A program made the translations under genes and the position numbers. From a virus, in IMG/VR virus record IMGVR_UViG_3300009146_000001, positions 12,046 through 76,045 of that record: a DNA stretch of 64,000 bases. The stretch is one strand, 5' to 3'. Below the pieces are notes generated by a model, which was given only the letters and a program-made list of their open reading frames with translations, was not told where the DNA came from and searched no databases. Below are positions 26,071 through 45,708 of the stretch, in pieces (position 1 is the first letter of the stretch; each line of letters begins with the position of its first letter).

Positions 26071-26166
26071 CGTTTACCACGGTGGTCCCTGAAAAGAAAT
26101 GACCCCGATCCCACTAGCGGAAAATCCGCTAGCAGAACCGGGGTCACCCAAGGGCGGAGTTGTGAT

Positions 26167-31502: not shown

Positions 31503-31504
31503 GG

Positions 31505-31908
31505 GGACGATTAATCGGCCGTTCAGGACACGACGGCAAGGGACAGTCCACCCCGGTCAGGGTGAACTGCCCCCGGAACGAAGAATCGTCCGCTTCAGGT
31601 ATCAGGCTTTAGGTGCAGTGCGGGGTTAACCGCGCAGGAACCACTTCAGTTCGAAGAGGCCGGGGTCATGCTGTCGGCCGTTCCTGTCCACTGGGATCAT
31701 GACGGTGCCGGGCCGCTACCCGGTATCCTCCTGCCGCGCTTCGCGGTCCTCGCGGACGCGCAGGTTTTTGTTGGGTTCCCCGGCACGGAGCATTACCGAT
31801 TGGGGAGAACATAAAGTTGGGGTTGACTGTCCCGCCAAAGTCCGGCAAATTGAGGCCGTTATTACGTTGTTGGCCCACTGGTAAGCCGAAAGGCCCCAGT
31901 GGGTCAAC
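31505..31908. ncRNA. Candidate large structured RNA
   Basis: Long intergenic stretch with many helices, e.g. 31505-12/31584-91, 31540-54/31819-33, 31705-12/31778-85, and a terminal hairpin with a GAAA tetraloop. Confidence 0.35.
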
Positions 31909-32267
31909 TCGTTTCTACGGATAGCTTCCTTCCCCCCTTCCCACTCCCCCAGTCATACGTTCCTACCCGGCTTCGAGGCAAAGTACCCCCCGGTGACCCT
32001 CGTCACCCCCGCTTTATATTAGGCCAGAGAAGGGCGACATACCCCCAAACCCCCTTAAGCCAGAGGGGCTTGCGACCCGACCCGCCCCGTCAAAAGCCAT
32101 GGTCTGAATTATTGCGCACAACAAGCATTATATTCACTTCCTTAGCGGTTTTTCCGCTAGCGGGGAGTGGAAAGCATGAGCCGGAATTGTAGGGGTGACT
32201 TGCCATAGTGGGGGAACCTCACAACGAGGCAACCCTGACACAATCAAACCTAGATAGACTGGAAATT

Positions 32268-33020
32268 ATGAAGGAAGCAAAGTCGAAGAACGCCACTAAG
32301 GCGAACGTCGAAATCATTCAACCGGCAACTGAGCCCACCGTCATTCCGGCAACTGAGCCCACCGTAGAGATTGGCCCGTTGCCCCTTGTTGGCGGCGAAT
32401 ATTCACCCGAAACGTCGAAAGACTTTTCGCTGGATATCACCTACACGGAAGGAACCGTATCGGATTTTGCCGCGCAATCGGAAAACCAATTGGCTGCACT
32501 GGAAAACCTTAAGACGGCCGTTAAGGGCATGGCGAATGGTCGCATTGCTATCATCGCGGCAGTTAAGGCTGCACTGGCAACAGGCTGTCCTGTCGCAATC
32601 GTGCGGCATACGTTCGTAGAGTGCTGGATTGCGAATGGGGGAACAAAAACCTACGCGAACGAAATCATGTTAGGTTGCGGGATTCGTTTGCGCGCCGTGC
32701 GCAAGGACGCTGGCAAGTCCAAGGGGACAACGCCTGCAACGCCTAATCCCGCAACGCCGGGACAGCCTGCAACGCCTCAGACGCCTGCAACGCCGGGACA
32801 GCCTGCTAGCGGAAATGCCGCTAGCGTGGAAACGCCGGTTGCCGGGACGGCAACGGTGGAAACGCCAGTCCCGACAGTCAACCTTGAAACGGTCAAGGAT
32901 TTGACTCCTGAGGAAATTGGCAAGGCAATCGGTGCCTCTATCCTTGCGCAGTATGGCAAGGACAAGGCTAAGGAAGTTGCCCGTCACGTCATGGCAACGA
33001 TTCATCAGGCATCAGCCTGA
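32268..33020 (+). CDS. First gene of the putative early region; PATP/PATE repeats
   Basis: 250 aa; atypical A/T-ending codons; internal tandem repeats; followed by a terminator. Confidence 0.75.
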   Translation: MKEAKSKNATKANVEIIQPATEPTVIPATEPTVEIGPLPLVGGEYSPETSKDFSLDITYTEGTVSDFAAQSENQLAALENLKTAVKGMANGRIAIIAAVKAALATGCPVAIVRHTFVECWIANGGTKTYANEIMLGCGIRLRAVRKDAGKSKGTTPATPNPATPGQPATPQTPATPGQPASGNAASVETPVAGTATVETPVPTVNLETVKDLTPEEIGKAIGASILAQYGKDKAKEVARHVMATIHQASA

Positions 33021-33027
33021 CAACGAA

Positions 33028-33058
33028 GAGATCACTCGCGAGAGTGGTCTCTTTTTTT
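33028..33058 (+). terminator. Intrinsic terminator
   Basis: GAGATCACTC-GCGA-GAGTGGTCTC followed by T7. Confidence 0.85.
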
Positions 33059-33295
33059 GTGCCCTTATCCGGCATGGTCCCGCGACCCCGGTGCCGCCAG
33101 CATCCTGCCCCATCGGGGCATGGGGGCGGTGCGCGATAGCCGGGCCGCACACGCGGGATTGGGGGCGGTGCGGAATTCTAGGGGTGACTTGCATATATGT
33201 GGAGACGCTCACCGATATGTTTCGGCGGGGCGAACCACTAAACCTTAGCGGAAATTCCGCTAGCAAACACAACTGACAGGAAGAAAGCAGAACAT

Positions 33296-33511
33296 ATGGC
33301 AGCAATCGTAGCAGCACTGATCGGTAAGTTCGTTACCGTCAAGACCGCAGGCAACACGTCGATCTTCGGCAGCCTCAAGGAACTCCCCGATAACGGAGGC
33401 TTCGAGATCTGGTCGAACCCGGCAATGAGCACAAGCTTCGGCTTGCGCTTCGGGGTCAAGGCCATCGCCACGGTCACGGCCGGGGAAACCATCGTCATCA
33501 ACCTCAAGTAA
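33296..33511 (+). CDS. Small early protein
   Basis: 71 aa, directly after a leader cassette. Confidence 0.7.
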   Translation: MAAIVAALIGKFVTVKTAGNTSIFGSLKELPDNGGFEIWSNPAMSTSFGLRFGVKAIATVTAGETIVINLK

Positions 33512-33665
33512 CTGACCATGGACGGGCAAGACGCGGAACACGCCGCCTTCATCGAAGGCATCATCGTCATCGAACTCCTCATCGCACTCGGCGAGATGCC
33601 TCCCACACGGGAGCGCGTCTCGGAGGAGGATCTCTCGATCTCAATAGCAGAATAACCGCTAACAT

Positions 33666-33881
33666 ATGAAGCAAATCCTGATCGTCATCCTCTCCGTGCT
33701 GTGCCTCCTCGGGTGCCGCACGCGACAGCCGCAGCCGACACCGGCCGCGCTCTACGCCGAACTCGTCCGCGTCTACGGTGCGGCCGACGCTGCCTCCATC
33801 TGGGAGGAACGCGGCTTCGCTCCGGTTCATCCCCGTGACTGGGGCGACGTGACCGGGAAGACCGGCACAATCTCGGACTGA
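33666..33881 (+). CDS. Small lipoprotein
   Basis: Signal peptide with lipobox LLGC; a palindrome copy ends 3 nt before the ATG. Confidence 0.65.
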   Translation: MKQILIVILSVLCLLGCRTRQPQPTPAALYAELVRVYGAADAASIWEERGFAPVHPRDWGDVTGKTGTISD

Positions 33882-34059
33882 ACCTTATGTATAAAACCAC
33901 TGTCATCATAAGCACGGAGTTCAACGCGGCGGAGTTCACGCTGGATGAACTGGTGCATCATGTGAACATCAATGGCGCGCAGCTCCTCTCGATGACCACC
34001 GAGAGCGACCGACCACCGGAATCCTATCCGCCTATGTCGGAGCCGAACGACTGAACCAG

Positions 34060-34091
34060 CCCAGCCTCCTTCACCGGGGGCTGGGTTTTTT
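34060..34091 (+). terminator. Intrinsic terminator
   Basis: CCCAGCCTCC/GGGGGCTGGG stem followed by T6. Confidence 0.8.
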
Positions 34092-34216
34092 CGTGCCCAA
34101 ATCTAGGGGTGACTTGCAATGGTAGATGGGACTCGCTCGGGATTGATTCCGCAGGCGACCAGCCCGAAATGACAGCAACCAATAGCGGAAATTCTGCTAG
34201 CAGATGACAGGAACAT

Positions 34217-35101
34217 ATGGACATCAACGGTAACATCATCGCCGGTCTACTCACCGGCCGGGTCGAATGCACCTTGGGGTGCGGCCAATCCAAGAAGCTG
34301 AAGGAAGCATCGCGGGATGCATCGGTCAGCCTCGGCGCGGTCGATCCCTTCGGCAAGCCGAACGGAAGCGTCGACGTCAGCGCCAAGCTCTGGAACACAG
34401 CGCCGAGGGTGAAGCGCCTGATCCTCGACATGGCGAACATCAGGCCAGCGGCTCAGGACATGGCTCTCCCGTGGGTGGAGAAGGCCATCATCTTCCGGGT
34501 CGCAAGGGCGCAGGAGATCAAGCGCAGGGTCGACGCGCTGATGGACGGGCTCACGCCTCGGATCGACGACATCGAACTCAACTTCGACGAGGAAGTGCGT
34601 GCCGCAATGGCCGGGTATCCGGGCGGGGCGGAGCGGGATTTCTACCCGTTAGACGGGCAGGATTTCCGCAGCGGCATCGTCCGCAAGTTCGTGGTGTCGG
34701 CGGTGCCGTCGTCGTCGGCGATCATCCAGCTCCTCGGGGAGGACGTGGGCACCAGCCTTGCAGCGGAGCGCGAGGATGACATGCGCCAGAACCTCGCCAA
34801 GTCGCAGGCCGTGGTCGTGGCCCGGCTGCACGCGGCGATGGAGCGCATCGTCGCAGCCTGCGATCCCGGCAAAGACCGGGTCAGGATCACGCAAGGTCTG
34901 CTCGGTGACATGAATGAGTTGATGGATACGGTTCCCAACTTGTTGCTCATCCCCGATCCCAAGATCGAGGACTTGGCCAGCGATATCCGGCTGGCGTTCT
35001 CGGGGATATCCCGAGAGGACTTGGCGGAAGACAAGGGGGCACGGGCCTCCGCCCACACACTGGCGAAATCCTTCGCCTCAACCCTCGCCGCCATAATCTA
35101 G
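34217..35101 (+). CDS. DUF3150-like protein
   Basis: Helical 294-aa protein (LPW...FYP...PNLLLIPDP) immediately upstream of the AAA+/VWA pair, the usual context of this family. Confidence 0.55.
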   Translation: MDINGNIIAGLLTGRVECTLGCGQSKKLKEASRDASVSLGAVDPFGKPNGSVDVSAKLWNTAPRVKRLILDMANIRPAAQDMALPWVEKAIIFRVARAQEIKRRVDALMDGLTPRIDDIELNFDEEVRAAMAGYPGGAERDFYPLDGQDFRSGIVRKFVVSAVPSSSAIIQLLGEDVGTSLAAEREDDMRQNLAKSQAVVVARLHAAMERIVAACDPGKDRVRITQGLLGDMNELMDTVPNLLLIPDPKIEDLASDIRLAFSGISREDLAEDKGARASAHTLAKSFASTLAAII

Positions 35102-35245
35102 GGGTGGGTTGCATAGGTAGTAACCGATAGAGCGTGGCCCAAGGGACGGTTCCCTTGGTTCCCACTCTGACGGTAACCAATCCTTCAGACGCTAACGGAA
35201 ATTCCGCTAGTGCAACTGACACACACTGACGGGAAAGCATTTGGT

Positions 35246-36346
35246 ATGATATTCGAAGTTAACTACGCGGAGTTGGGTGACCACATCGACAACAGCATCG
35301 ACAGCGGCATGGCCGCAGCGGTCATCAGCCACCCCGGTGTCGGCAAGACCACGTTCATCAAGGCCGTGGCCAACAAGCGCAACATCGCCATGGGTGGCAA
35401 GCGCATCGGCGACACCTTCGGGCGGCGGGAGATGCTCGGCTTCCTCTATGAGCCGGTCGACTTCCGGGGACTCATGGTTCCGCAGCAGGATGGCAGCACC
35501 AAGGTGTTCCCCTTGGACAAGTGGCCGTTCGAATCCTTGGTGCAGAAGGGACTCATCCCTGAGCACGGCGTGTTCGTTCTCGACGACATGCTCAACGCAC
35601 CTCGCTCGGTGCTGGATGCATTCGCCGAGCCCTTGTGCGAGCACACGGTCAACGGGGAAAGGTTGGCTCCCGGCTGGACGATCATCGCAACCGGGAACCA
35701 TATCGGTGGAGGCAGCTCGGCCAAGCCGATGCCCAACCACGTCACGAACCGGCTCGCAATCCTTGCGCTCAAGCCGGACTGGGAATCATGGGCTAGCTGG
35801 GCCGTCGGCAATATCGCGCCGGAGTTGCTGGGGTATTTCGAACTCCAGAAGGGGGCGGACCTCTTCGCATACGACCCCAAGCTGCGCGCTGAGCGGCCGA
35901 ACGAGCCGTACCTCACGCCGAGATCATGCGAGCACCTGTCTCGACGCATCGAGGCGTGGCGTGCGAACCGGGGCGACAAGCCGCCGATGCATTTGTATGC
36001 ATCCGTGGTCGGTGACTACGGAGCCAAGCTCTGGGCCACGCTGGATTACATTCACGAGCTTGCACCTTGGGAAGAGGTGCTCGCGGATCACAAGGCAGCG
36101 CGTCTGCCGGTGTCCGCCGGGGCGAAGTTCGCCCAGATCAGCATCCTCTTGGGAGGCTTGCAGCAGAACTGCCCGGAAGGGATGAGCATCCCGCGTCCCA
36201 TCGCCGCAGCGGTGGGCGGGTACATGAACCGCCTGCCCAACGAGGTGCAGGCCGTCGCCCATAACCGGGCGATGAGGCTGCGCAAGGAGTGGAGCCGGAC
36301 GGACGAGTGCACGAAGTGGTTCGTGAAGAACCAATCGGAAATCTAG
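35246..36346 (+). CDS. MoxR/AAA_5-like AAA+ ATPase
   Basis: HPGVGKT (Walker A), FVLDD (Walker B), IIATGN, NRL, TPRS. Confidence 0.85.
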   Translation: MIFEVNYAELGDHIDNSIDSGMAAAVISHPGVGKTTFIKAVANKRNIAMGGKRIGDTFGRREMLGFLYEPVDFRGLMVPQQDGSTKVFPLDKWPFESLVQKGLIPEHGVFVLDDMLNAPRSVLDAFAEPLCEHTVNGERLAPGWTIIATGNHIGGGSSAKPMPNHVTNRLAILALKPDWESWASWAVGNIAPELLGYFELQKGADLFAYDPKLRAERPNEPYLTPRSCEHLSRRIEAWRANRGDKPPMHLYASVVGDYGAKLWATLDYIHELAPWEEVLADHKAARLPVSAGAKFAQISILLGGLQQNCPEGMSIPRPIAAAVGGYMNRLPNEVQAVAHNRAMRLRKEWSRTDECTKWFVKNQSEI

Positions 36347-36463
36347 GGGTGAGTTACACCTATGGAGCGGGCGATCAGCGTCTGCTCCATACGTGTGTCT
36401 CAACACTGAGATACTGCTAACGGAAATTCCGCTAGCGAACCAACCAAGAAAGGGAACTGACGG

Positions 36464-37858
36464 ATGGATAACACAACACCGGCTGTCTTGCGAAAGGCAG
36501 TCAACCAGATCTTCCTCAAGGCAATCTGGGTCACGGAGATCGGCTTCGAACGCTGCGTCTTCATCGAGATGCCGGAACTCATGGCCTCGAACGGGCAAGG
36601 CACGATGGCGACGGACGGAAGGGTAGTCTACTACCACCCGTCCTGCCTCAGGTGGCAGCCTGCGTTCATCGAAGGCGTGATCGTGCATGAGTGGCTTCAC
36701 GGTGCACTGATGCATCCGGAGAGGTTCGCGGTGCTCCCGGAGAAGAACCACAAGGTGGCCAACATCGCGATGGACGCCATCGTCAACGCGATGTGCATCG
36801 AGTGGGGATTCAAGCTGCCGGAAGGTGCCATCGACATGCCCGAGGGGCGGACGCATACGTTCGAGCAACTCTACGCCAAGCTCATGGGCAAGCAGAAGCA
36901 GCAGCCGGAGCCGCAGCGTGGCAAGGGCAAGGGCGGCGACCAGCAGGGTGAATCCGAGGGCGATCAGGGTGGAGACTCTGACGGGGATGGTGAGGGCGAG
37001 GGCTCCGGGTCAGGAGATCAGGAGGATTCCGATCAGGATCGGGAGGGCGATGGCGGAGGTGGCGACGAGGAGAAGGACGGGGACGGGGATAAGGAAGGCA
37101 AGGGCAAATCCGGTAACGGAAAATCCGCTAAGGATGCAAAGCCCGAGCCCGCCAAGGGTCCGCCCAAGCCGACGCTCGGCGAGAGGGACATCCACAAGGC
37201 TCCGTCTCGTGGATCCCAAGCCGAGGACAAGACAGCGGAGGAGCGGGCCAATGCCGCCATCGTCCGTGCCGTGGCCACAGCCAAGGCGCATGGCAAGGAT
37301 CCGCTCGGGCTCGGCCTCGCCGTCGCAGGCTGGGGAGAGTCGAAGGTATCATGGCGCGAGCAGCTTGCTGCCTACGCCACGCAGCGGACCAACGAGGACT
37401 GGTCTTACATGAAGGCCAACGGTTCCTACGCTGCCATGAACGTGATCGTTCCGGGCAGGTACAGCAAAACAATCGGGGACGTGATCGTCGTCCGCGATAC
37501 ATCGGGCTCGCTCTATTCGAGGCAGAAGGAAGTCATGACCGAGGTGGCCGGGATCATCACCCAGTGCACGCCAACCCGGATCATCCTCATCGACTGCGAT
37601 GCAGAGGTGCACCGCGTCCTCGAACTCGAACCGTGGCAGCCCTTGCCCACGGATGCACTCGGCGGAGGCGGGACGGATTTCCGTCCGGTCTTCGAGGAGG
37701 TGGCCAAGCGTTATCCAGACGTGGGCCTGATGGTATTCATCACGGACCTCATGGGTTCGTTCCCGGATCAGGCTCCGCCCTACCCGGTGATCTGGTGCGG
37801 CATCGAGAACGGCAATCTCAAGCCGCCGTTCGGTGACTTCGTGGAAGTCGCAGACTAA
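36464..37858 (+). CDS. DUF2201-like metallopeptidase plus VWA domain protein
   Basis: TMATDG, HEWLH, NIAMDAIVN, acidic Gly linker, MIDAS DTSGS, GGGGTDFRPVF, FITDLMG. Confidence 0.9.
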   Translation: MDNTTPAVLRKAVNQIFLKAIWVTEIGFERCVFIEMPELMASNGQGTMATDGRVVYYHPSCLRWQPAFIEGVIVHEWLHGALMHPERFAVLPEKNHKVANIAMDAIVNAMCIEWGFKLPEGAIDMPEGRTHTFEQLYAKLMGKQKQQPEPQRGKGKGGDQQGESEGDQGGDSDGDGEGEGSGSGDQEDSDQDREGDGGGGDEEKDGDGDKEGKGKSGNGKSAKDAKPEPAKGPPKPTLGERDIHKAPSRGSQAEDKTAEERANAAIVRAVATAKAHGKDPLGLGLAVAGWGESKVSWREQLAAYATQRTNEDWSYMKANGSYAAMNVIVPGRYSKTIGDVIVVRDTSGSLYSRQKEVMTEVAGIITQCTPTRIILIDCDAEVHRVLELEPWQPLPTDALGGGGTDFRPVFEEVAKRYPDVGLMVFITDLMGSFPDQAPPYPVIWCGIENGNLKPPFGDFVEVAD

Positions 37859-38048
37859 GCGGAAATTCCGCTAGTGGATAAGCCCGAGGGGCGGGCAGCG
37901 GTGTCTGCCCTTCAGGCTTAGCTACTTCCCATCATACCCGGTTGTCTCCGGGGAGGTGGGCTTCTGTCAGGTGGTTGTGTCCGAGGGGAGGGCAGGTGTC
38001 CTCCCCTCTGACGTGTCCAAATGAATGGACCGAAACAAATGAGAAGCG

Positions 38049-38453
38049 ATGAACAAATATGACAAGGCGATAGAGACCTATCGTAAATTGCAGGAGCTTC
38101 ACGCCAAGCGCGATGAACTCTTCCGGGAGTTGGGCTTCTGCCTTGAATGGGCACGGGCTCTCGATCTGCTGGCGCTCAAGCCAGAGCACGCATCGGGTAT
38201 TCACCGGGCGCAGGACATGGCGAGCGTGGACGCGAACTCGCTGCCGCATGGCAGCGCACGATTCGTTTGGCAGAGGTACAAACTCAGGTATCCCAACGCT
38301 GTGGTTGGGGCGCACCTCAAGAGTGGTGGGATCGTCATCTTCCTCAACCCGATACCGGCGCGCTCCGGACTCGGGGCCGGGCAAGGGGTGCCTACCTACG
38401 CAGAGTTCAGTGAGAAATTAAAACAACAACAAGAAAGGAATAGTCATGGCTAA
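38049..38453 (+). CDS. Hypothetical protein
   Basis: 134-aa ORF in the plus-strand operon. Confidence 0.55.
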   Translation: MNKYDKAIETYRKLQELHAKRDELFRELGFCLEWARALDLLALKPEHASGIHRAQDMASVDANSLPHGSARFVWQRYKLRYPNAVVGAHLKSGGIVIFLNPIPARSGLGAGQGVPTYAEFSEKLKQQQERNSHG

Positions 38454-38703
38454 CTGTATTGCAAAGTGCTGCGGCATCGACAGCTCGCGGCGAAAGGAAG
38501 AACACCGGCTCGGCAGCGAGGCTGCACTGGTCGAGGCGAACACATGGCACACGTCCGCCGTCGCCTACGTGAAGAAGGACGGGAGCGGCCACGTCAATGT
38601 GACGCAGAACGGGAAGGAGATCCTTGGCTTCACGTTCGGGCCGGAGACCGTGCCGCATAAACCGGACGAGGACGACGACATCGAGCAGGAGGAAACCAAG
38701 TGA
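38446..38703 (+). CDS. Hypothetical protein
   Basis: AGGA RBS, 85 aa. Confidence 0.65.
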   Translation: MANCIAKCCGIDSSRRKEEHRLGSEAALVEANTWHTSAVAYVKKDGSGHVNVTQNGKEILGFTFGPETVPHKPDEDDDIEQEETK

Positions 38704-38906
38704 ACGAGATCACACTACATCTCCAGCCCGGAGAGATCCAGACCCTCATCGGATTGGTGCGGGTCGAAGCCGCCAAGTGGCGGGGCAGGATCTGGCGACA
38801 CCCGGACAGGAACACGAGCGGCCCGCCTGCCGGGTGGCAGGAGCACGTCGATCAACTCGACGCACTGAACGACCGGCTCGTGACACAGCTAACACTTAGC
38901 ACTTGA
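38700..38906 (+). CDS. Hypothetical protein
   Basis: GGAGG RBS, GTGA overlap. Confidence 0.6.
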   Translation: MNEITLHLQPGEIQTLIGLVRVEAAKWRGRIWRHPDRNTSGPPAGWQEHVDQLDALNDRLVTQLTLST

Positions 38907-39028
38907 CAATCTAGGGGTGGGTTGGACTATCGTGACCACGGTTCACGCCGTGGGTTCACGTCTACGCTAACGGAATTTCCGCTAGTGCAGACCTGAACCT
39001 TAACACACAACTGACAGGAGTAGTTATT

Positions 39029-39667
39029 ATGGGACGACGAAGAAGAAGGAAGCTGCTGTTCATCGACACGAATGCCTACCCAACGGCGACGCCGACGAAC
39101 ACGCTGGCCGGGATACAACGACGGGTATGGTGGAGCTACGCTGCCTACTTCAGGAAGTGGCCACGCGATCTGATCTGCTCGAACCCCGCCACACTGATGG
39201 GGAAGAACCCATTCGGCACGAACCCCGGATGGGCGGAGAGAAGCGATGACGTCCAGCGAGACCTCACCTGTCTCTACATGGACTACCTCGAAGCGCGGGA
39301 CAACCCACGCTGGACCGAAGGGGTGGATGAATCCGTCCGGTCCGATCTGCCGTGCCGGGTCATGAACTGGCGGCGTACCGACCTCGAACTGCCGCCATGC
39401 ATGGGCATCCTCTGGGGCTGGGGAACCCGGATGGCCACGGTCATGGCCGCACTGCGCAAGACAGGCATCCAGTATTACAAGGCACCAGCCTCCGTGAACT
39501 GGCTGCACTTCGTGGTGGATGGGCTGAACAAGCACACCATGAACTTCAGGAAGTCGACGACGGTCATCGTCTTCCCGTTATACAAGACGCGGGAAGTGGA
39601 GATTGCACTGACCACCTACTTCCCGTGGAAGGACATCGGGGAAGGGCAGCCGGACTACTTCGAATAA
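39029..39667 (+). CDS. Hypothetical protein (paralog A)
   Basis: Follows a leader cassette; similar to the next ORF. Confidence 0.65.
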   Translation: MGRRRRRKLLFIDTNAYPTATPTNTLAGIQRRVWWSYAAYFRKWPRDLICSNPATLMGKNPFGTNPGWAERSDDVQRDLTCLYMDYLEARDNPRWTEGVDESVRSDLPCRVMNWRRTDLELPPCMGILWGWGTRMATVMAALRKTGIQYYKAPASVNWLHFVVDGLNKHTMNFRKSTTVIVFPLYKTREVEIALTTYFPWKDIGEGQPDYFE

Positions 39668-39668
39668 C

Positions 39669-40229
39669 ATGAGCACGAAGTATTCAGCGGCGGGCATCCG
39701 TAAGTTGGTATGGAAGAAGTTCTACATACTCTACGGATGCCTGCCCGGCTATACGCGGCACGACAAATGGACCGAGCCGTATCCCGATAATGCATTCCTG
39801 ACCGATGAGGCTATGCAGAAGAAGCTCGTCGAGATCTACATGCATCACACGCTCATCACCTCAGAGGGCAGGCCGCACATCTGGGACGAGCGCAACGACG
39901 AGTGGTCCTTGAGGGAAACCCTCACCATCGGGGGCCTTTACGAACACTCGGAGCGGGTATGGAAAGCGATGCAGAGCGAGGGCCTCGCGGCCGATTGGCC
40001 TGAGCACTTGGTCGCCCGCCGGATCCGGTACATCACGCATCACAAGCCGCACGGACTCAACCTGCGCAGCGTCCGCACTACGCCACGTGGTGGGAAGGTG
40101 CCGACCCGCCGGATATTCCTGCCGTACCTGCCGTACAAACCCTACCAAGTGGAGAATCTGTTAGCGCGGATGCTCCCGCTCCTGTCCACCAACCTCGATC
40201 CCAACAAGATCAATGAGCCAGCCGAATAA
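39669..40229 (+). CDS. Hypothetical protein (paralog B)
   Basis: Shares AGI..VW, Q..L..YM and YK..VE..L...P with paralog A. Confidence 0.65.
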   Translation: MSTKYSAAGIRKLVWKKFYILYGCLPGYTRHDKWTEPYPDNAFLTDEAMQKKLVEIYMHHTLITSEGRPHIWDERNDEWSLRETLTIGGLYEHSERVWKAMQSEGLAADWPEHLVARRIRYITHHKPHGLNLRSVRTTPRGGKVPTRRIFLPYLPYKPYQVENLLARMLPLLSTNLDPNKINEPAE

Positions 40230-41217
40230 GATTCATGAACTCATGGGCAACAGCGTTGCCTTGGAGATTCTCAAGCAACTCGCGCCGGAAACTAAGGAGA
40301 CTTTCCGGATCAAGCGGTATCTCCCGGTGCCGGGATACCTCTCGCCCAACGTGGTCACGACCAACCTCGTGACCAATACACTTATCTCCCTGAGCCAAGG
40401 GCCGGAGACGATGGACGGGTCAGCCGCAGCACTGGCAGCGATGACGTGCTGGCAGACCGCGCACTTCTGGCCGATGTACGCGGTGACGCAGGAGCTGACC
40501 GAAGCCATGCTCCAGACCGAGCCACCGGACGACGTGGTATGGAAGGATCTGTCGTGGCCCATCCCGGCCGCGACCTTCCTCCTGCCGGATACCAAGGAGG
40601 TGCGTGAGCATTTCCTAACCTCGGCACCGCTGGCGATTTCAGCGGGCCGGGTCAGCACCGCGCCGGTGAACCTCACCAAGGACGCGAGGCACCTGATGGA
40701 TCTGATAAGGATGCCGCAGAACGAAACCGAGCGGGACATGATCGTCCTCACCTACTTCGACGACAAGGTGGGGGTGCCGTGTTGCCACGACCTGACCGTG
40801 AAACCGACGTGGACCTTGGCGGAATCCACAATGATGGCGCACGACCGCAAGACGCAGCATCCCTATCAGTACCCGGTCGAGCCGATTGATCTGCAACGGA
40901 TGCGCCGCTGTGCCCAGATGTTGATCAACCTCCTGTCCTTCTGCTCATCGGACTACATGCCGAAGGTGGAAGAGCACGGCCCGATCATCCTCCGAAGAGA
41001 GAAGACAGCCAAGGACGGGAAGGTGAAGCAGGAAGGACTGGCCGGGGTGCGCTGGCTTGGCGTGGGCTACGTCCGCAAGCGCACTACCTTGGGCGGTCAT
41101 CACGCCAGTCCGGAGGATCCGTTCTGGCGCAAGGGCCATCACCGATGGCAGCCCTATGGTCCGGGGCGCACACTCAAGCGGCTCATCTGGATTGAGCCAG
41201 TCCTCTGCTGCGTATGA
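40213..41217 (+). CDS. Conserved phage protein with a C-terminal HWRRGH-type motif
   Basis: HASPEDPFWRKGHHRWQPYGPGR...WIEP. Confidence 0.7.
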   Translation: MSQPNKIHELMGNSVALEILKQLAPETKETFRIKRYLPVPGYLSPNVVTTNLVTNTLISLSQGPETMDGSAAALAAMTCWQTAHFWPMYAVTQELTEAMLQTEPPDDVVWKDLSWPIPAATFLLPDTKEVREHFLTSAPLAISAGRVSTAPVNLTKDARHLMDLIRMPQNETERDMIVLTYFDDKVGVPCCHDLTVKPTWTLAESTMMAHDRKTQHPYQYPVEPIDLQRMRRCAQMLINLLSFCSSDYMPKVEEHGPIILRREKTAKDGKVKQEGLAGVRWLGVGYVRKRTTLGGHHASPEDPFWRKGHHRWQPYGPGRTLKRLIWIEPVLCCV

Positions 41218-41651
41218 CGCACCGACACAAAGCTAACTGGCTTCCTGCCAATACCCTGAGTCGCCTGAGTTTCTATCGGTGGATGACGCCCACCGAGATG
41301 AGGAAATTCCACATCACCATCGGGGGCAACATCGTCGGCCGGTCAACGGACGTGCTCTGCCGGGGAATGAAGTGGCGGGTCATCCGCAGCGACAGCACAC
41401 CCGACAAGGACTTCGTCGCCCACGTGGCGATGATCTCGTGGTTATTGCAACGGCCGCACCGGCAGCAGTTCGGACAAAGCATCAGGATCGTGCAGGTGCC
41501 GAAGGCGGGACGCATGGTCTACCATCCGCTCTTCATGGGCGGGACGCAGAAGGGCAGGGAGTTCGACTCGATGGCCGAAGCCATCGGGTGGACGAGTTAC
41601 CTATTGGAACTGGCAAAGAATGAAGCACCTGATATTCAGCACGCTACTTAA
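41214..41651 (+). CDS. Hypothetical protein
   Basis: ATGA-coupled, 145 aa. Confidence 0.55.
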   Translation: MTHRHKANWLPANTLSRLSFYRWMTPTEMRKFHITIGGNIVGRSTDVLCRGMKWRVIRSDSTPDKDFVAHVAMISWLLQRPHRQQFGQSIRIVQVPKAGRMVYHPLFMGGTQKGREFDSMAEAIGWTSYLLELAKNEAPDIQHAT

Positions 41652-41761
41652 CCTCATCACCATCGCCGTGTTTCTCTACGCGATATGGTGGTTCGTCGTC
41701 CTCCTCTTCTCCTTGTGGTGAAGGCGGAGGCATCAACACAAAACCAAACTGACAGTGACAA

Positions 41762-42304
41762 ATGAAACTCGAAGGAATGCTAGGATACATTGAAGCAAGA
41801 AGACGGATGGACATCGAGTGCGAGCGGCCGGGGTACGGCACGCTCTTGGCGGAACACGGGGTGCTCTTCCCCAAGATCGGCAGGCGGCCGAAGGGGATGC
41901 GGAAGATGAAGCTGGGCATGTGCTATCGGAACGCCAGCACCATAACCAACTTCCCTTGGGGTGGCGTCGACCTCCTGTACTGCGAAGGATATTCAGCACG
42001 GGCCAGTCTGGGTATCCCGCTCCTCCATGCGTGGACCTTGAACCCGGTGACCATGGAGGTGATCGACCCGACGTGGGATGACGGTGCCGAATACTACGGC
42101 TGGGTCTACACGCGGGAGATCATCGCCGAGGCAATGGTCGGGACGATGGAGTACGGGATCATCGACTCCGATCATCCGAATGGGTGGGAACGGATCCGCC
42201 GGATGATCACCGGGGAAATCCCGGCCGCGCACTGGCGGCACGAGATCACCGACATGGTGAAGGCACTAACGGAAAAACCGCTAGAGATATGCGAGTCAAC
42301 CTGA
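41762..42304 (+). CDS. Transglutaminase/papain-like Cys-His-Asp protein
   Basis: CYRNA...YCEGY...HAW...IDPTW. Confidence 0.7.
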   Translation: MKLEGMLGYIEARRRMDIECERPGYGTLLAEHGVLFPKIGRRPKGMRKMKLGMCYRNASTITNFPWGGVDLLYCEGYSARASLGIPLLHAWTLNPVTMEVIDPTWDDGAEYYGWVYTREIIAEAMVGTMEYGIIDSDHPNGWERIRRMITGEIPAAHWRHEITDMVKALTEKPLEICEST

Positions 42305-42501
42305 CCAAGAACCAGATCGCCAACGCCAAGGTAGCGTTGGTCTACCGTTCGAACAGCATCCGCGAACGCCTCAATGACCTCAATGATTTCGGGGCATCAG
42401 CCTCGGTCATCCGCAGGGAATACACGCTGCTCAATGATTGCGAGGGCGCTATCGCAGCCTTGGATAAAGCACTGAGCACAGACTCGGACGTCATGCCATG
42501 A
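42289..42501 (+). CDS. Hypothetical protein
   Basis: ATG 4 nt after palindrome copy 42266-42284. Confidence 0.6.
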   Translation: MRVNLTKNQIANAKVALVYRSNSIRERLNDLNDFGASASVIRREYTLLNDCEGAIAALDKALSTDSDVMP

Positions 42502-42725
42502 ACCCGGAGCGACCGAGGACGTGCCCGAGATACAGGGGGCACTGGTGGGTCATCGTCTATCCGGACGGCGACTGCTACCGGGAGTTGATCGACAACGAGG
42601 AGGCCGCAGAGTTCATGCTGCAATGCCTCAGCAAAAGATGCCCCGGTGCGAAGCTGCTTCGGGTCCGCCTGATGTCGGCCGTAAGGCCACCGGGAAAGAT
42701 CAACAAGCCGAAGATGAAACTATGA
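42498..42725 (+). CDS. Hypothetical protein
   Basis: ATGA-coupled. Confidence 0.5.
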   Translation: MNPERPRTCPRYRGHWWVIVYPDGDCYRELIDNEEAAEFMLQCLSKRCPGAKLLRVRLMSAVRPPGKINKPKMKL

Positions 42726-42832
42726 AGCGATGCAGGCACAGATGGAGTGAGTGGATGGTCAGCCAAGGCATTCGCTGGCGGTTCTGTTTCCGGTGCAGGC
42801 GATGCCAAAGAAAAGAATCTGAAGCTTGTACT

Positions 42833-42891
42833 TGACAGTCACAGACGACCGTGTTACGCTGCTCACATGATCAGCGTGGCACGGTTTTTTT
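42833..42891 (+). promoter_or_regulatory. Sigma70-like promoter (TTGACA-17-TACGCT) overlapping a terminator hairpin
   Basis: ACCGTGTTACGCTG/CAGCGTGGCACGGT stem followed by a T-tract. Confidence 0.5.
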
Positions 42892-42917
42892 GTGCCCGGA
42901 TATAACCACTGGAACCT

Positions 42918-43226
42918 ATGGGAATGGATCTTGAACCGGCGCGCCCGACGAAGGACTTGCCGAAGGACACGATGGACGGCAAGCCCTACTGGCAGCACTA
43001 CAACTGGGCAGGCTGGTCGTTCCTCTTGGATCACCTTGAGAAATGGGGCGTGAGCATGGATGGATTCTCCGGGGTCAACGACGGCATCCTCATCCGGGCT
43101 GAGAAGTGCAGGGAGGTAGCCGACGCAATCGAGAAGCACCTGCCCGAGCTGAGCGAACGCCATCAGGAATGGCTGCAACCCCACATCATCTTCTGGAGAA
43201 ACTGCGGCGGATGCCGCCAATGGTAA
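42918..43226 (+). CDS. Hypothetical protein
   Basis: 102 aa, MGMDL start. Confidence 0.65.
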   Translation: MGMDLEPARPTKDLPKDTMDGKPYWQHYNWAGWSFLLDHLEKWGVSMDGFSGVNDGILIRAEKCREVADAIEKHLPELSERHQEWLQPHIIFWRNCGGCRQW

Positions 43227-43504
43227 CAATGAAACCCAAGCGCAAGAAGCACGTAACTCTGGACGAGATCTTCAGTGCCATCCCCCAGCCCACACGGCGG
43301 AAGATCGTCGCCCTCCTGAAGGAGCACTACCCGAACAGCTCCGGGGAAATCAACCGCCTGCTCAAGCCGGAGTTAAATTCCGTCGCGGATGAACTGAGGG
43401 AGATCGGACTCGTGCCGGACTATGCGGCCTACCTGATTCCTTACTCGGTCTACATCGCCGCAGGAAGCGCGGACCACATCGACCTTCTGGATAGCACGAC
43501 ATAA
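43220..43504 (+). CDS. Hypothetical protein
   Basis: Coupled ORF. Confidence 0.55.
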   Translation: MVTMKPKRKKHVTLDEIFSAIPQPTRRKIVALLKEHYPNSSGEINRLLKPELNSVADELREIGLVPDYAAYLIPYSVYIAAGSADHIDLLDSTT

Positions 43505-43522
43505 AATCCCAACCAAACTGAT

Positions 43523-43738
43523 ATGGATCTACCTCACTTCGGACCCACTGGAAAATTCCCCGACGGCAAGCTTGACCCGAGCGACGAAGGTGAACTCGCC
43601 ATCGGCATCGCGACCGACAAGAAGAACGGCGTCATCCGCATTCACTTCGGCAAGCCGATAGCGTGGTTCGCGCTCAAGAAGGATGAGGCCATGCGCCTCT
43701 CCAAGTGGATCGCCGAACGCGCCGAGGATCTGCCATGA
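43523..43738 (+). CDS. Conserved small phage protein
   Basis: GPTGKFPDGKL...DEGEL...FGKPIAW. Confidence 0.7.
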   Translation: MDLPHFGPTGKFPDGKLDPSDEGELAIGIATDKKNGVIRIHFGKPIAWFALKKDEAMRLSKWIAERAEDLP

Positions 43739-43899
43739 AAGACTACGTCATCGGCATCCTCATAGGCACCGCGATATTCCTGCTCATCATACTCATCCCG
43801 TCCCCGGCGGAGGCGCGCAAGGACGAGATGAACCTGCAACTACGCCGCATCGCGGATGCCCTTGAAGTCATCGTCGCCGAGACGAAGAGGAACCAATGA
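43735..43899 (+). CDS. Small membrane protein
   Basis: N-terminal TM helix; LRRIADALE. Confidence 0.55.
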   Translation: MKDYVIGILIGTAIFLLIILIPSPAEARKDEMNLQLRRIADALEVIVAETKRNQ

Positions 43900-44008
43900 A
43901 AAATCCGCGCTGGTTCACCATCGGCGAGAAGATCATCCACTCGCTGATGTGGATCACCATCGCCGCCCTTATCTTCGTCGCTATCAAAGTTGTTTTTAAT
44001 CTGTAACC

Positions 44009-44332
44009 ATGCAACGACCAACAATCCAAGCTGAGGGTGTGGTGTATATGGCACCGCAACTCAGGGACTTTCCCGGTCAGGAACCCTACGTCGAATTCGT
44101 TCTGGAGCTGGAGCCACGGACCAACAGCTTGGGCAGGGAATACCGTGAGCGAGTCTACGTCCGCCTCTTCGGGATACGCGGGATGAATGCGCTCGTCGAG
44201 ATCAAGCTGGGCAACTACGTCAGCGTCGCCGGGGAAGCGGACAAGAAGATGTTCACCGCACCGGACGGCCGCAACTTCGCCAACCTCGTCGTCATCACCA
44301 ACGGCTACAAGGTTCTCTTCCGCCCGACATGA
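44009..44332 (+). CDS. OB-fold SSB-like protein
   Basis: PQLRDF...VRLFG...KLGNYVSVAGE. Confidence 0.65.
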   Translation: MQRPTIQAEGVVYMAPQLRDFPGQEPYVEFVLELEPRTNSLGREYRERVYVRLFGIRGMNALVEIKLGNYVSVAGEADKKMFTAPDGRNFANLVVITNGYKVLFRPT

Positions 44333-45708
44333 CAACCCCACATCCCGCCTACGCCCGGCTCGAAACCCTGCGGCCCAAGCTTCTGCCTTGGCAGCCGGAG
44401 GCGTGCGAGAAACTGATCGGGTCCATCCTCCGCCATGGCTCTGCCCTCGATAGCTCCGACACCGGGGTGGGCAAGACCGCGCACGCGATTGCCTGCGGCT
44501 ACGCCCTCGGCATGCCGTTGGCCATCGTCTGCTCGAAGTGGGCCAAGCCGCAGTGGAAGTACATGGCATGGATGCTCGGCAATACGAACATCGCCGGGGT
44601 CCATCACTGGGAGGAGGTGCGGCTGGGCAAGACGCCCTTCGGCAACTGGGTCAACCCGGATGCCAAGGAGAACTTCCAGTGGAAGCTGCCGCCCCATTCC
44701 CTCGTGGTCTTCGACGAGGTTCACAAGGCCGGGGGATTCAAGACGCAGAACTCGTGGATCATGATATCGGCCAAGCGCAACGGCCACTCCGTCCTCGGGC
44801 TGTCCGCCACGGTAGCGGATACGCCGCTAAGGATGTTCGCCCTGAGCTACGTGCTCGGGCTTGTACCAACGACTCGTGCCTACTGGCCGTGGCTCATGTG
44901 CAACGGGTGCCAGCGCAACCAGTGGAACGGGATGGAGTTCAGGGATCCATCGGGGCGGCACACGGCACGGATCCACGACATGATCTTCAAGGCGGGCAGA
45001 GGGGTGCGGGTGAAGAAGGATGAGATCCCCGGTTTCCCGGACATCCTCATCGACGTCGAGACGATGGACTGCTCCGACGCCACGGAGGAAATCGCCAAGG
45101 CGTACAAGGAAATCGAGGAAGCCTTGGGTGAGTACACGGCCAAGATCATCTCCGCCACGAGTGCGGCCGAGATCGTGATCCGGATGCGCCAGAAGATCGA
45201 GCTGCTCAAGATCCCGGCCACGGTCAGCATGGTCGAGGACATCGAGGATGACGGAGGTGCGGCCGTCATCTTCGTCAACTACCGGGAGACGGCGATCAAG
45301 CTATGGTCGGCACTCAACTTCAGCTCGAAGGGCGAGGTTGGTCTCATGATCGGAGGGATGAAGGAGTCGGATATCCAGAAGCACATCCAAGCCTTTCAGG
45401 ATCAGGCGACCCACCGGCTCGTCGCCACCTACGGGTGCGGCTCGGAGTCCATCAACCTTCAAGACCTGACCGGGCAACGGCCGCGCACGGAGTTACTCTT
45501 CCCGACGCACTCGTCGCGCCAGATCAGGCAGGCGCAAGGGAGGATCCACCGGGCTGGCGGCAAGAGCTTGGCCAACGTGCGCTTCGTCTTCGCGGCCGAC
45601 ACCATCGAGGAACACCTGATGCGGACGATCCGGGACAAACTCCTGCGCCTCGACACGCTTCAGGACGGCGTCGCTTTGCCGATGCCCCTTCCTCCGGAGA
45701 TAGAGTAG
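44329..45708 (+). CDS. Superfamily 2 (SNF2-like) helicase
   Basis: LLPWQ, TGVGKT, DEVH, SAT, ESINL, QAQGRIHR. Confidence 0.9.
   Translation: MTTPHPAYARLETLRPKLLPWQPEACEKLIGSILRHGSALDSSDTGVGKTAHAIACGYALGMPLAIVCSKWAKPQWKYMAWMLGNTNIAGVHHWEEVRLGKTPFGNWVNPDAKENFQWKLPPHSLVVFDEVHKAGGFKTQNSWIMISAKRNGHSVLGLSATVADTPLRMFALSYVLGLVPTTRAYWPWLMCNGCQRNQWNGMEFRDPSGRHTARIHDMIFKAGRGVRVKKDEIPGFPDILIDVETMDCSDATEEIAKAYKEIEEALGEYTAKIISATSAAEIVIRMRQKIELLKIPATVSMVEDIEDDGGAAVIFVNYRETAIKLWSALNFSSKGEVGLMIGGMKESDIQKHIQAFQDQATHRLVATYGCGSESINLQDLTGQRPRTELLFPTHSSRQIRQAQGRIHRAGGKSLANVRFVFAADTIEEHLMRTIRDKLLRLDTLQDGVALPMPLPPEIE

Follow-up and report, generated by a model that had tools for sequence, protein, structure and literature searches.

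Composite box, hairpin and palindrome cassettes in the early region of a 76-kb phage genome: candidate start signals and recombination points

Six composite units, each with a short oriented box, a hairpin region and a palindrome, occur in the 76-kb genome, with direct terminal repeats, of a novel, uncultured phage, where they would act as regulatory cassettes punctuating the rightward gene block in its accessory (early) part. We interpret them as PeSL-like composite cassettes, in which a start-signal box, a 5' RNA hairpin and an operator palindrome would be combined and the repeats would serve as recombination points; this reading is held tentatively, at a probability of about 0.45. Mobile regulatory cassettes are already known from T4-type phages, and the non-sigma-70 form proposed here would be new. 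The original prediction, made on the window (the whole analysed stretch of 64,000 nucleotides, whose numbering is used below), had described a four-part unit. The repeated stack of box, hairpin and palindrome is real, but its parts are separable, the palindrome and the AACTGAC motif being found also without a box, and the unit is put together from independent modules, not one indivisible whole.

The box and its transcriptional setting

A search for TCTAGGGGTGRSTT with up to two mismatches returned six matches in the window, at the six predicted places (32188, 33177, 34102, 35097, 36342 and 38910) and on the plus strand only, against a mean of 0.93 in shuffled sequences, none of which (0/100) reached six. 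A scan of the whole 76,045-bp genome found no further copies outside 32.2-38.9 kb. In the alignment of the six units A-T-TAGGGGTG--TT is invariant and conservation fades until approximately position 24, with firm conservation spanning just 14-16 nt. The boxes, located by motif scan, and the intrinsic terminators between them are as follows:

32188-32207, plus strand: box of unit 1, the TGTAGGGGTGACTTGC variant, heading the plus-strand gene block
33025-33061, plus strand: intrinsic terminator at the end of transcription unit 1, with a 13-bp stem, a T7 run and then GTGCCC
33177-33196, plus strand: box of unit 2
34058-34093, plus strand: intrinsic terminator closing transcription unit 2, with tail TTTTTCGTGCCC
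34102-34121, plus strand: box of unit 3
35097-35116, plus strand: box of unit 4; the 294-aa ORF stops at its TAG, 35099-35101
36342-36361, plus strand: box of unit 5; the AAA+ ATPase ORF stops at its TAG, 36344-36346
38910-38929, plus strand: box of unit 6, 3 nt past the stop codon of a 68-aa ORF

The predicted use of the box TAG as the stop codon of the preceding gene is thereby confirmed for the ORFs 34217-35101 and 35210-36346. Likewise, both the promoter scan and the box alignment agree with the earlier statement that the box matches neither the sigma-70 nor the sigma-54 pattern. Sigma-70-like promoters are not enriched (four in 29-47 kb versus 4.5 expected) and none lies within the units; upstream of unit 1 there are a sigma-70-like site at 31993-32020 and a -10-like TATATT at approximately 32124-32129, just before the unit 1 palindrome.

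Box 1 precedes the first gene of the plus-strand block, downstream of a 765-nt gene-free gap, and is followed by one gene and a terminator; box 2 is followed by four genes and a terminator, the tail of which ends 5-8 nt before box 3 (5 nt to the AAT-extended box at 34099, 8 nt to the core box at 34102). For genes behind a canonical terminator, a new start signal is therefore required at just the position of the box. This terminator argument is weakened by the gene at 42918 and by the gene at about position 513 of the relative L034, which start right behind a terminator and have no cassette, so that read-through or antitermination must exist. Between the two readings offered originally, a private promoter with 5' hairpin and operator or attC-like recombination sites, the former remains the best-fitting on the sequence evidence, since the boxes head transcription units, lie directly behind intrinsic terminators and match neither sigma pattern. 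The box would be an oriented start signal of ~16-24 nt, read either by the host RNA polymerase redirected by a putative phage factor or by a putative phage polymerase. Initiation would take place ~20-24 nt past the first T of the box, at a point where an A/T-rich triplet and then a G-rich run occur in all units; from unit to unit, this putative distance shifts by 1-4 nt.

As had been noted for RNA polymerase, none is recognisable among the 88 ORFs, and neither a sigma factor nor a DNA-binding regulator was detected among them. Searches of the genome for an integrase, a tyrosine or serine recombinase, a transposase, an HUH protein and an N- or Q-like antitermination protein were likewise negative. 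Within the gene trio originally labelled DUF3150/AAA+/VWA, the AAA+ and VWA/DUF2201 assignments hold, while the 294-aa protein gave no match to DUF3150.

Hairpins, palindromes and translation starts

Despite their unrelated sequences, the hairpins start 19-26 nt from the first T of the box in all units. Dinucleotide shuffling gave the following z-scores:

32208-32239, plus strand: unit 1 hairpin, z = -2.75; its GTG 32208 is in frame with ATG 32268
33199-33238, plus strand: unit 2 hairpin, z = -2.61
34127-34166, plus strand: weak hairpin region of unit 3, z = +0.07
35115-35184, plus strand: unit 4 hairpin, z = -2.58
36356-36412, plus strand: unit 5 hairpins, z = -5.59
38924-38963, plus strand: unit 6 hairpin, z = -2.12

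The hairpin thought to be kept in every unit thus beats the shuffled sequences in five out of six, with unit 3 at chance level. The plus-sense RNA folds more stably than the antisense in 7/8 segments, and no Rfam family matches the hairpins. They are not terminators, because no U-run follows them; instead, each could form the 5'-terminal stem-loop of an mRNA and serve as a stabiliser or processing structure.

Sites of the form TAGCGG-N5-CCGCTA (up to one mismatch) number 16, where 0.11 are expected, and seven of these lie inside ORFs. The 17-19-bp dyad is built of conserved 6-bp half-sites, the right one better conserved, around a free A/T-rich 5-nt spacer, and could fold into an 8-bp stem with a 3-nt loop. 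All six units contain the 19-mer palindrome described originally, 58-96 nt past the start of the box except in unit 1, where it lies 45 nt before the box; as a part of the unit it stands, but it is not confined to it, some copies having no box and some lying within tolerant coding linkers, in either gene orientation. The copies, located by motif scan and given without strand unless stated, are:

26115-26131: stand-alone palindrome between minus-strand genes
32143-32159: unit 1, TAGCGGTTTTTCCGCTA, upstream of the box
32807-32823: in a low-complexity linker of the first early ORF
33246-33262: unit 2, perfect
33645-33661: weak copy at an internal gene junction, 5 nt before ATG 33666
34183-34199: unit 3, one mismatch, followed by TGAC 34205 and ATG 34217
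35193-35209: unit 4, followed by AACTGAC 35214, ACTGAC 35225 and ATG 35246
36418-36434: unit 5, followed by AACTGAC 36455 and ATG 36464
37114-37130: in a linker of the VWA protein rich in Gly/Asp; the reading frame matches that of the 32807 copy
37857-38019, plus strand: seventh, box-less cassette; its palindrome (37857-37873) overlaps the VWA stop codon, hairpins follow at 37874-37925 (z = -6.3) and 37928-38019 (z = -3.5), and ATG 38049 lies downstream
38968-38984: unit 6, followed by AACTGAC 39009 and ATG 39029
42267-42283: near the 3' end of ORF 41762-42304
44813-44829: half-sites inside the helicase gene
46238-46254: near the 3' end of the 4231-aa gene
56877-57190: a pair of copies with spacer TTCTC, at 56877-56893 and 57174-57190, where the 4231-aa gene has repeated low-complexity coding sequence

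We propose that TAGCGG-W5-CCGCTA is an operator for a putative dimeric DNA-binding regulator, in which case the 16 palindromes would form a genome-wide, stoperator-like set.

AACTGAC has eight genomic copies, six of them on the plus strand 8-32 nt upstream of start codons. The element predicted for every unit is present in units 2-6, reduced to TGAC in unit 3, but is missing from unit 1, and two box-less starts have it as well. Besides the copies given above, the motif scan located:

33271-33277, plus strand: AACTGAC of unit 2, 25 nt before ATG 33296
33510-33516, plus strand: AACTGAC without box, 8 nt before ATG 33518
41747-41753, plus strand: AACTGAC without box, 15 nt before ATG 41762

Most genes of this phage have no Shine-Dalgarno (SD) sequence and carry GGAACC, TGACC or TAACC before the ATG instead; AACTGAC may be part of a translation-initiation region.

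Relatives and alternative explanations

The relative L034, 46% identical, has the same architecture in unrelated sequences: a stop codon is followed by a conserved long hairpin, an optional 20-bp palindrome ending in CTAG, a CA-rich leader and the ATG, and these modules are found together or singly. Its conserved element is a long two-tier hairpin of ~20 bp with mutually paired flanks (z = -3.6 to -4.0). Shared genes of the two phages are limited to the ATPase trio, the helicase and the giant gene, all small genes between the cassettes being different, and tandem paralogues in L034 have one cassette ahead of each. Its near-identical sibling L035 is 98% identical up to a cassette and then continues with a gene located 1.4 kb further on in L034; L035 is without this 1.4-kb block of five genes, and the crossover lies inside the cassette, within a plain homology stretch, the CA-rich leader, as expected for homologous recombination. 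Relatives had been suggested as the place to look for gain and loss at unit edges, and this indel, from another lineage, is such a case; the window phage's own lineage gives only weak single-contig hints, loose ends at 32163 and 34102. The predicted shuffling of early genes by cassettes is therefore supported, by way of ordinary repeat recombination. Because the modules recur between unrelated small genes, they could offer matching stretches at which recombination inserts, deletes or duplicates blocks of genes. The other mode originally envisaged, attC-like or other site-specific sites at which a dedicated recombinase cuts and joins single-stranded hairpins and so moves gene cassettes, would also be compatible with the indel and the wholly different inter-cassette gene content of L034, and a variable hairpin between conserved flanks bears a superficial likeness to such sites. 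Yet none of the enzymes searched for was found in the genome, the flanks are not inverted core sites, the complement of the box is not conserved after the hairpin, the crossover lies in plain homology, and the units are upstream of genes and co-oriented with them, which leaves the attC-like mode with a next to negligible probability.

Two other explanations place the signal in the RNA. A long early transcript could start from one or a few promoters of host type between 31.5 and 32.2 kb, in the gap where the two sigma-70-type signals occur; box and hairpin would then be an RNA signal, either a site of cleavage by an endonuclease or RNase III-type enzyme, by which each mRNA is left with a 5' hairpin, or a nut/put-like antitermination site before each terminator. 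RNase III substrates such as the T7 R sites are long paired hairpins, and processing occurs between T7 early genes. The ~20-bp two-tier hairpin of L034 resembles such a substrate, plus-sense folds are the more stable, terminators 1 and 2 are each preceded by the box of the same number, and the cassette-less genes directly behind terminators imply read-through or antitermination. However, the window hairpins differ in sequence, length and shape, so that no single hairpin-specific protein can read them all; at 13-17 bp, most stems are on the short side for RNase III, little transcript would arrive at box 3, so close behind a strong terminator, without antitermination, and neither an Rfam match nor an N- or Q-like protein was found, and we consider RNA-level punctuation somewhat unlikely. 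It is improbable, in our view, that the box is instead a very strong SD driving a uORF through the hairpin to an end at or just before the palindrome, whereby translation of the uORF would unfold the hairpin or supply the main start with ribosomes (standby or reinitiation). GGGGTGA does pair with 7 nt of the canonical 16S 3' end, GGAGGGTGA or AAGGAGTGA serves as SD in the few genes of this phage that have one, 5/6 units show a start codon 6-14 nt past GGGGTGA (post-hoc binomial p ~0.009), the uORFs of units 2, 3, 5 and 6 have 12-17 codons and end 0-11 nt before the palindrome, and GTG 32208 shares its frame with the first gene. This does not account, however, for the conserved AATCTAG and TTGC flanking the SD core; the unit 4 ORF has only 3 codons, the uORF peptides are unrelated, the main starts lie 70-130 nt further on in a non-SD context of their own, the SD-like core is absent from the L034 cassettes, and the ATG/GTG triplets are also simply hairpin-closing bases. 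Finally, N4-style structured promoters would require that the 4231-aa ORFan is an unrecognisable, virion-packaged and ejected polymerase, for which the box gives specificity and an extruded DNA hairpin (variable hairpin or palindrome) the entry point. The genome type fits, at 76 kb with direct terminal repeats and with a giant gene that ends the leftward virion block and faces the early block, no other polymerase is detectable, and N4 vRNAP hairpins tolerate free non-conserved stem bases if paired (PMC4496689). The giant protein, however, has no T7/N4 motif (T/DxxGR with A, B, C), no DxDxD motif and no PDB, Pfam or PHROG match; for its central 1200 aa, 1.84 billion representatives contain no homologue, the N-terminal 1000 aa are of low complexity, and the C-terminal 1700 aa, common to L034, look like a membrane-inserting ejection protein. 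N4 also requires specific loop bases, and palindromes occur inside late genes too, all of which makes such promoters highly improbable here.

Comparison with known systems

The PeSL cassettes of T4-type phages are a precedent for a dual regulatory and recombination role (PMC2839356, PMC4122927). Like the units proposed here as PeSL-like, they are composite, ~100 bp long, placed between small, mostly orphan early genes and composed of start signal, stem-loop and translation start region; their copies are crossover points, relatives differing by cassette-bounded gene blocks, as L034 does from L035. Unlike the box, PeSL promoters have the sigma-70 consensus with an AT-rich upstream element, and their stem-loops are terminators overlapping the promoter, whereas the hairpin here follows the box and separate canonical terminators exist. 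PeSLs furthermore have no operator-like palindrome and no start-linked motif, and their phage lineage is unrelated.

In T7, an RNA hairpin follows directly on several promoters (the R1.1, R3.8, R6.5 and R13 sites, RNase III). T7-group promoters also share with the box a single conserved, oriented sequence (in T7 a private 23-bp promoter) in short gaps before many genes, behind the stop codon of the preceding one (T7 record). They differ in that no single-subunit RNA polymerase is detected here and the inferred start distance is not fixed, and among the promoters testable none showed sequence identity to the box. The conserved bases, hairpin with variable stem bases and giant virion gene recall N4 virion-RNAP promoters (PMC4496689), which are, however, three in number at the genome end and have short stem-loops with specific purines in a small loop, while the hairpins here measure 13-25 bp, have arbitrary loops and are not accompanied by polymerase motifs. 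Similarly, the stoperators of cluster A mycobacteriophages (PMC9283540, PMC6550527) are present in many genome-wide copies, in numbers well above those of classical operators; most sit in short gaps at gene boundaries, and the site sequences have diverged in relatives. They are asymmetric 13-mers oriented with transcription and bound by a monomeric immunity repressor, in contrast to the dyad described here, in a genome with no repressor or integrase found and no sign of lysogeny. A short asymmetric motif just upstream of many start codons is likewise known as SAS/ESAS from cluster K mycobacteriophages, where about half of the SAS are preceded by an imperfect inverted repeat with variable spacer and the consensus differs between subclusters (PMC3203893). 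SAS are dissimilar in sequence, have no extra upstream box or hairpin, measure 13 bp, include the ribosome-binding site and lie 3-8 bp from the start, whereas AACTGAC has 7 bp and lies 8-32 nt away.

The box and the layout of the early region

The virus record is complete (76,045 bp with 123-bp direct terminal repeats, the window being bases 12046-76045) and belongs to a tailed phage with recognisable terminase, virion and tail proteins, helicase, SSB, exonuclease, an Acb2/Tad1-like protein and a VPDSG-CTERM protein, the last of which hints at a verrucomicrobium as possible host. Identical fragments of this phage are contained in soil, rhizosphere and sediment metagenomes, and in none of the RNA runs. 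Most of the genome consists of leftward genes; a single rightward block spans window 32208-45708, and the cassettes, six full units and one box-less unit within 6.9 kb, occupy its first 7 kb. Stop-codon recoding was rejected, since long ORFs are intact under table 11. Searches of 87 ORFs against Pfam and PHROGs returned no RNA polymerase, sigma factor, DNA polymerase, integrase or helix-turn-helix regulator, and the 4231-aa ORF likewise matched none of these families, which bears out the original prediction that no RNA polymerase is recognisable. The window contains no tRNA or tmRNA and, as a whole, no Rfam family at gathering threshold, the stretch 31.4-39.2 kb giving one chance miRNA match at E <= 1; blastn of the cassette region against 50,697 phage records found no match, and an exhaustive k-mer listing was uninformative.

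The box, TCTAGGGGTGRSTT, occurs six times (starts at 32188, 33177, 34102, 35097, 36342 and 38910), one copy having one mismatch, always on the + strand and nowhere else in the genome; none of 100 shuffles reached six, and the six-fold repetition originally described therefore stands. In the alignment of the six boxes (A4) an invariant A-T-TAGGGGTG--TT is usually followed by GC, an A/T-rich triplet and a G-rich run. Firm conservation covers 14-16 nt and becomes weaker to about position 24, the A/T triplet and G at positions 20-24 not being fixed in position among units. An IMG/VR scan with the box sequence gave single chance matches only. As had been noticed before, the TAG of the box doubles as stop codon of the ORF for a 294-aa protein and of the adjacent AAA+ ATPase. 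A 12-nt direct repeat, GGGGGCGGTGCG, is present at 33121-33132 and 33161-33172 in the 116-nt spacer from terminator 1 to box 2, its second copy ending 4 nt upstream of that box.

The claim that the box fits neither sigma-70 nor sigma-54 was confirmed. A sigma-70 promoter was rejected because alignment A4 lacks a hexamer pair and no unit has a -35/-10 pair; in 18 kb, four sigma-70-like sites were found against 4.5 expected, none inside a cassette. Sigma-54 promoters have GG and GC exactly 10 nt apart (-24/-12), and in the boxes, aligned on TTGC, the GG is 2 nt too close and the GC element is missing from units 5 and 6. An ECF or sigma-28 type promoter was dismissed for want of a second conserved element 16-17 nt away, and replication iterons, pac or parS sites on account of the ~1 kb spacing and the lack of ParB.

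Three canonical terminators delimit the layout:

33025-61, + strand: terminator 1, ending the first rightward gene
34058-93, + strand: terminator 2, ending the four small genes headed by box 2
42847-92, + strand: terminator 3

Box 1 precedes the first rightward gene, past a gene-free gap of 765 nt, box 3 begins 5-8 nt past the tail of terminator 2, and boxes 4-6 lie 0-3 nt past the preceding stop codon. The main argument for regarding the box as a putative start signal is this arrangement of promoter, gene and terminator. Gene 42918 of the window and one gene of a relative (L034, see below) begin immediately past a terminator, no cassette intervening, so that read-through or antitermination must occur.

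Some further details of these regions were recorded. All three terminators share the tail T6-7 (G/C)GTGCCC (33053-33064, 34087-34098 and 42886-42897). A sigma-70-like site, TTGACA-17-TACGCT, overlaps the 5' arm of the third (42832-42897), and gene 42918 begins 25 nt past its T-run; this region may yield a tiny transcript or act as an attenuator. In the gap 31503-32140 there is a sigma-70-like site at 31993-32020 and a TATATT ~13 nt upstream of dyad 1, both candidate host-type early promoters with dyad 1 as operator.

Dyad, start motif and hairpins

The palindrome (dyad) of the cassettes is best written TAGCGG-N5-CCGCTA with an A/T-rich spacer, and its 16 copies (0.11 expected) all lie inside the window, nine at gene boundaries and seven inside ORFs. 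They include:

Units 1-6: six dyads, within the cassettes
37857: dyad at the stop codon of the VWA gene, with strong hairpins and no box
33645: weak dyad at an internal gene junction
26115: dyad between leftward genes
32807-32823, 37114-37130, 56877-56893 and 57174-57190: dyads in low-complexity coding linkers of three proteins, in both gene orientations and in frame

The linker dyads are either selected binding sites or a small palindromic element inserting where coding tolerates it. The right half (CCGCTAG) is more conserved than the left. Conserved half-sites around a free spacer, copies without a box and occurrence in genes of either orientation speak for recognition by a dimeric DNA-binding protein and against a role as RNA hairpin. 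An activator site at -41.5 or -55 was rejected because the distance from dyad to ATG is variable (26-53 nt). IMG/VR scans with the window dyad and with that of L034 gave only single chance matches, and the 93 single matches of the palindrome among genome contigs are about the chance number and hence no host signal. CTAG is 6.7-fold depleted genome-wide (40 observed vs 268 expected), and almost half of the surviving copies belong to box or dyad; the box core CTAGGGG resembles the half-site CTAGCGG, CTAGNGG being common to the box and a half-site of the dyad, TAGCGGAAATTCCGCTA.

AACTGAC has eight copies in the genome. Six of them are 8-32 nt upstream of + strand starts, two of these without a box, and four of the six have a dyad upstream. 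Since most genes of this phage have no Shine-Dalgarno (SD) sequence but GGAACC, TGACC or TAACC 0-4 nt upstream of the ATG, an unusual start context that may reflect the host, AACTGAC appears to belong to the local signals for translation start.

The unit hairpins begin 19-26 nt past the first T of the box and are mutually unrelated in sequence. Against dinucleotide shuffles, five have the better fold (z = -2.1 to -5.6) and that of unit 3 has not (z = 0.07), so that the hairpin predicted behind every box holds for five units. In 7 of 8 segments the + sense RNA gives a stabler fold than its antisense, which argues weakly for an RNA role; no U-run follows any unit hairpin, and no conserved complement of the box was found behind it. 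The four parts of the predicted unit are all present, not as an indivisible whole: box, hairpin, dyad and AACTGAC are independent modules, as seen from the 16 dyads and the box-less AACTGAC copies.

Relatives and recombination at the cassettes

Homologues of the ATPase with 44-47% identity occur on metagenomic contigs, close relatives being rare; in IMG/VR, ATPase protein and profile retrieved nothing beyond unrelated phages of 30% identity that carry no cassettes, and no ATPase relative was found among genome contigs. Two relatives were compared, L034 (16.4 kb) and its near-identical sibling L035 (3.1 kb). L034 has in common with the window the trio of 294-aa protein, ATPase and VWA protein, the helicase, and the C-terminal 1700 aa of the giant 4231-aa protein, and nothing else; every small gene between these differs.

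Neither box nor window dyad was found in L034. It possesses an element A of ~65 nt, in eight copies located 0-6 nt past stop codons; A folds as a conserved two-tier hairpin whose loop varies (z = -3.6 to -4.0), and a CA-rich leader comes next. An element P, a 20-bp dyad of sequence CTAGTGC-N6-GCACTAG, is present six times, and each of the two elements is found alone as well as beside the other. A further hairpin module, CCTGCA...TGCAGG (z = -3.1), located after the dyad at 1200-1250, 3600-3650 and 4315-4338, is another interchangeable part of this cassette set. At the junction of 294-aa gene and ATPase L034 has only P, and its ATPase and VWA genes overlap, whereas the window has a full cassette at both places. 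CTAG stands at both ends of the dyad in either phage, which suggests that the binding proteins are homologous and have diverged in specificity. L034 also contains two tandem paralogues, 81% identical and each headed by element A. These genes (1970-3576) consist mostly of a 15-nt (5-residue) ATGGTGGCACCATCT-like repeat, ~30 copies each, and probably encode a beta-helical repeat protein.

Throughout the gene trio (294-aa protein, ATPase, VWA protein), up to and into the element A behind the VWA gene, L035 matches L034 at 98% identity. Past that A it continues with a homologue (84% identity) of the L034 gene behind another A, 1.4 kb downstream, the intervening five small genes and one element A being absent. 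A three-way alignment maps the switch to the CA-rich 3' part of element A. Because the junction falls within plain homology and no gene for a recombinase is present, we attribute it to homologous recombination between the repeats. The search for genes gained or lost precisely at cassette edges, proposed as a check of the original prediction, is thus positive in the L034/L035 lineage. In the lineage of the window there are weak hints: single low-depth contigs from one soil run show similarity that starts exactly at box 3 (34102) or ends 4 nt past dyad 1 (32163), and three indels in these contigs lie within hairpin 3. Contigs from four soil and rhizosphere runs were mostly 100%-identical short pieces, with no covariation and weak loose ends only.

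Readings of the cassettes and known systems

We read the cassettes, with a probability of roughly 45%, as composite cassettes like the PeSLs (promoter-early stem-loop mobile regulatory cassettes) of T4-type phages, combining putative start box, 5' hairpin, operator dyad, start motif and recombination repeats. The box would be a transcription start signal of non-canonical type, the hairpin a 5'-terminal RNA structure on each message, the dyads an operator set of stoperator-like distribution and AACTGAC a start-region motif, and the cassette repeats would also be recombination substrates. Of the two proposals in the original prediction, promoter with hairpin and operator is accordingly the best, if putative, reading, and attC-like sites did not hold up. 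Punctuation at the RNA level, i.e. RNase III-type processing or nut/put-like antitermination of a long transcript from the upstream gap, is a weaker contender, which draws on the long and conserved hairpin of L034 and on the terminators needing read-through. We consider it rather improbable that the box is a phage-private promoter (~20 nt contiguous, hairpin-coupled) of an apparatus invisible to current profiles, with a co-evolving dyad operator. Its reader would then be a polymerase in the 4231-aa ORFan or another orphan, or a new factor retargeting host RNA polymerase, and the operator would differ between relatives, being CTAGCGG-N5-CCGCTAG in the window and CTAGTGC-N6-GCACTAG in L034.

A translational leader, with the box as SD driving a uORF, is more doubtful still, even though GGGGTGA is a 7-nt match to a canonical anti-SD and, in 5 of 6 units, has a start codon 6-14 nt downstream (post-hoc p ~0.009), opening uORFs of 12-17 codons that end 0-11 nt upstream of the dyad. 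Structured promoters of the N4 style, with the polymerase hidden in the giant ORFan (window 46038-58733, minus strand, 4231 aa), appear very unlikely: the N4 vRNAP promoter is a short hairpin with conserved loop purines, whereas loops and stems of the unit hairpins are arbitrary, and the T/DxxGR, A, B and C motifs of N4 vRNAP were not found in the ORFan by motif and homologue searches. No polymerase was detected in it with Pfam, PHROGs, PDB, motif regexes or searches of 5.8 billion and 1.84 billion proteins. Ala/Pro-rich sequence of low complexity makes up its N-terminal 1000 aa, a search of 1.84 billion representative proteins found no homologue of its central 1200 aa, and its C-terminal 1700 aa, with hydrophobic segments and 32% identity to an L034 protein, look like a membrane-inserting ejection protein. 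The first early protein (250 aa) has a poor predicted fold (pLDDT 50) and meaningless Foldseek matches, and the orphan proteins of 835 aa and 678 aa have no PDB match; no binding protein was pinpointed. Integron-like attC sites are hardly credible: these have inverted core sites (R''/L'' with L'/R') and a tyrosine-recombinase integrase, and here no inverted core sites surround the hairpin, no recombinase family occurs in the genome, the box complement is not conserved past the hairpin and the L034/L035 junction lies in plain homology.

Several known systems share single traits with the cassettes. T7-group promoters are likewise placed before many genes, but they require a T7-like RNA polymerase, of which neither the 87 ORFs nor the giant ORF has an RNA_pol family match. 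The T7-type box is contiguous over ~23 bp at a fixed distance to the G start; in the window 14-16 nt are firm, conservation continues more weakly to about 24, and the A/T triplet with its G varies over positions 20-24. The SAS/ESAS of cluster K mycobacteriophages, an asymmetric motif before many starts with an optional upstream inverted repeat, its function being unknown (PMC3203893), are analogous in layout to AACTGAC plus dyad, but differ in sequence, length and spacing (PMC3203893). The stoperators of cluster A mycobacteriophages are many dispersed copies at gene boundaries (PMC9283540), where 9 of the 16 window dyads also lie; they are, however, asymmetric 13-bp sites that all face one way and have a cognate immunity repressor, in contrast to the 6-bp + 6-bp dyad. 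Pfam and PHROGs searches of the 87 ORFs detected no repressor or integrase.

To our knowledge, repeated promoter/stem-loop cassettes that both regulate and shuffle early genes have been documented experimentally only in T4-type phages. The same logic is now met in an uncultured phage of soil and sediment that is unrelated to these, with a putative start signal of no known sigma type and, beyond the PeSL logic, a putative genome-wide operator set; its 16-nt box and 17-nt dyad offer a compact handle on how transcription is controlled in a host group about whose promoters next to nothing is known. PeSLs are functionally the closest known system (PMC2839356, PMC4122927). Both are repeated composite motifs in gaps before small early or ORFan genes (those here not shared with L034), and both contain a stable stem-loop (5 of 6 units here). 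PeSL copies bound indels between close relatives and act by homologous recombination (PMC2839356); a cassette-bounded indel is seen in L034/L035, and the window's own lineage shows the two single low-depth contig ends. Unlike PeSLs, the cassettes lack a sigma-70 consensus early promoter with AT-rich upstream element (PMC2839356, PMC4122927), and since the lineage is also unrelated, they are a variant of the PeSL kind and not a member. These findings, including the same architecture rebuilt in L034 out of other sequences, suggest that punctuating early regions with cassettes is a general solution among phages.
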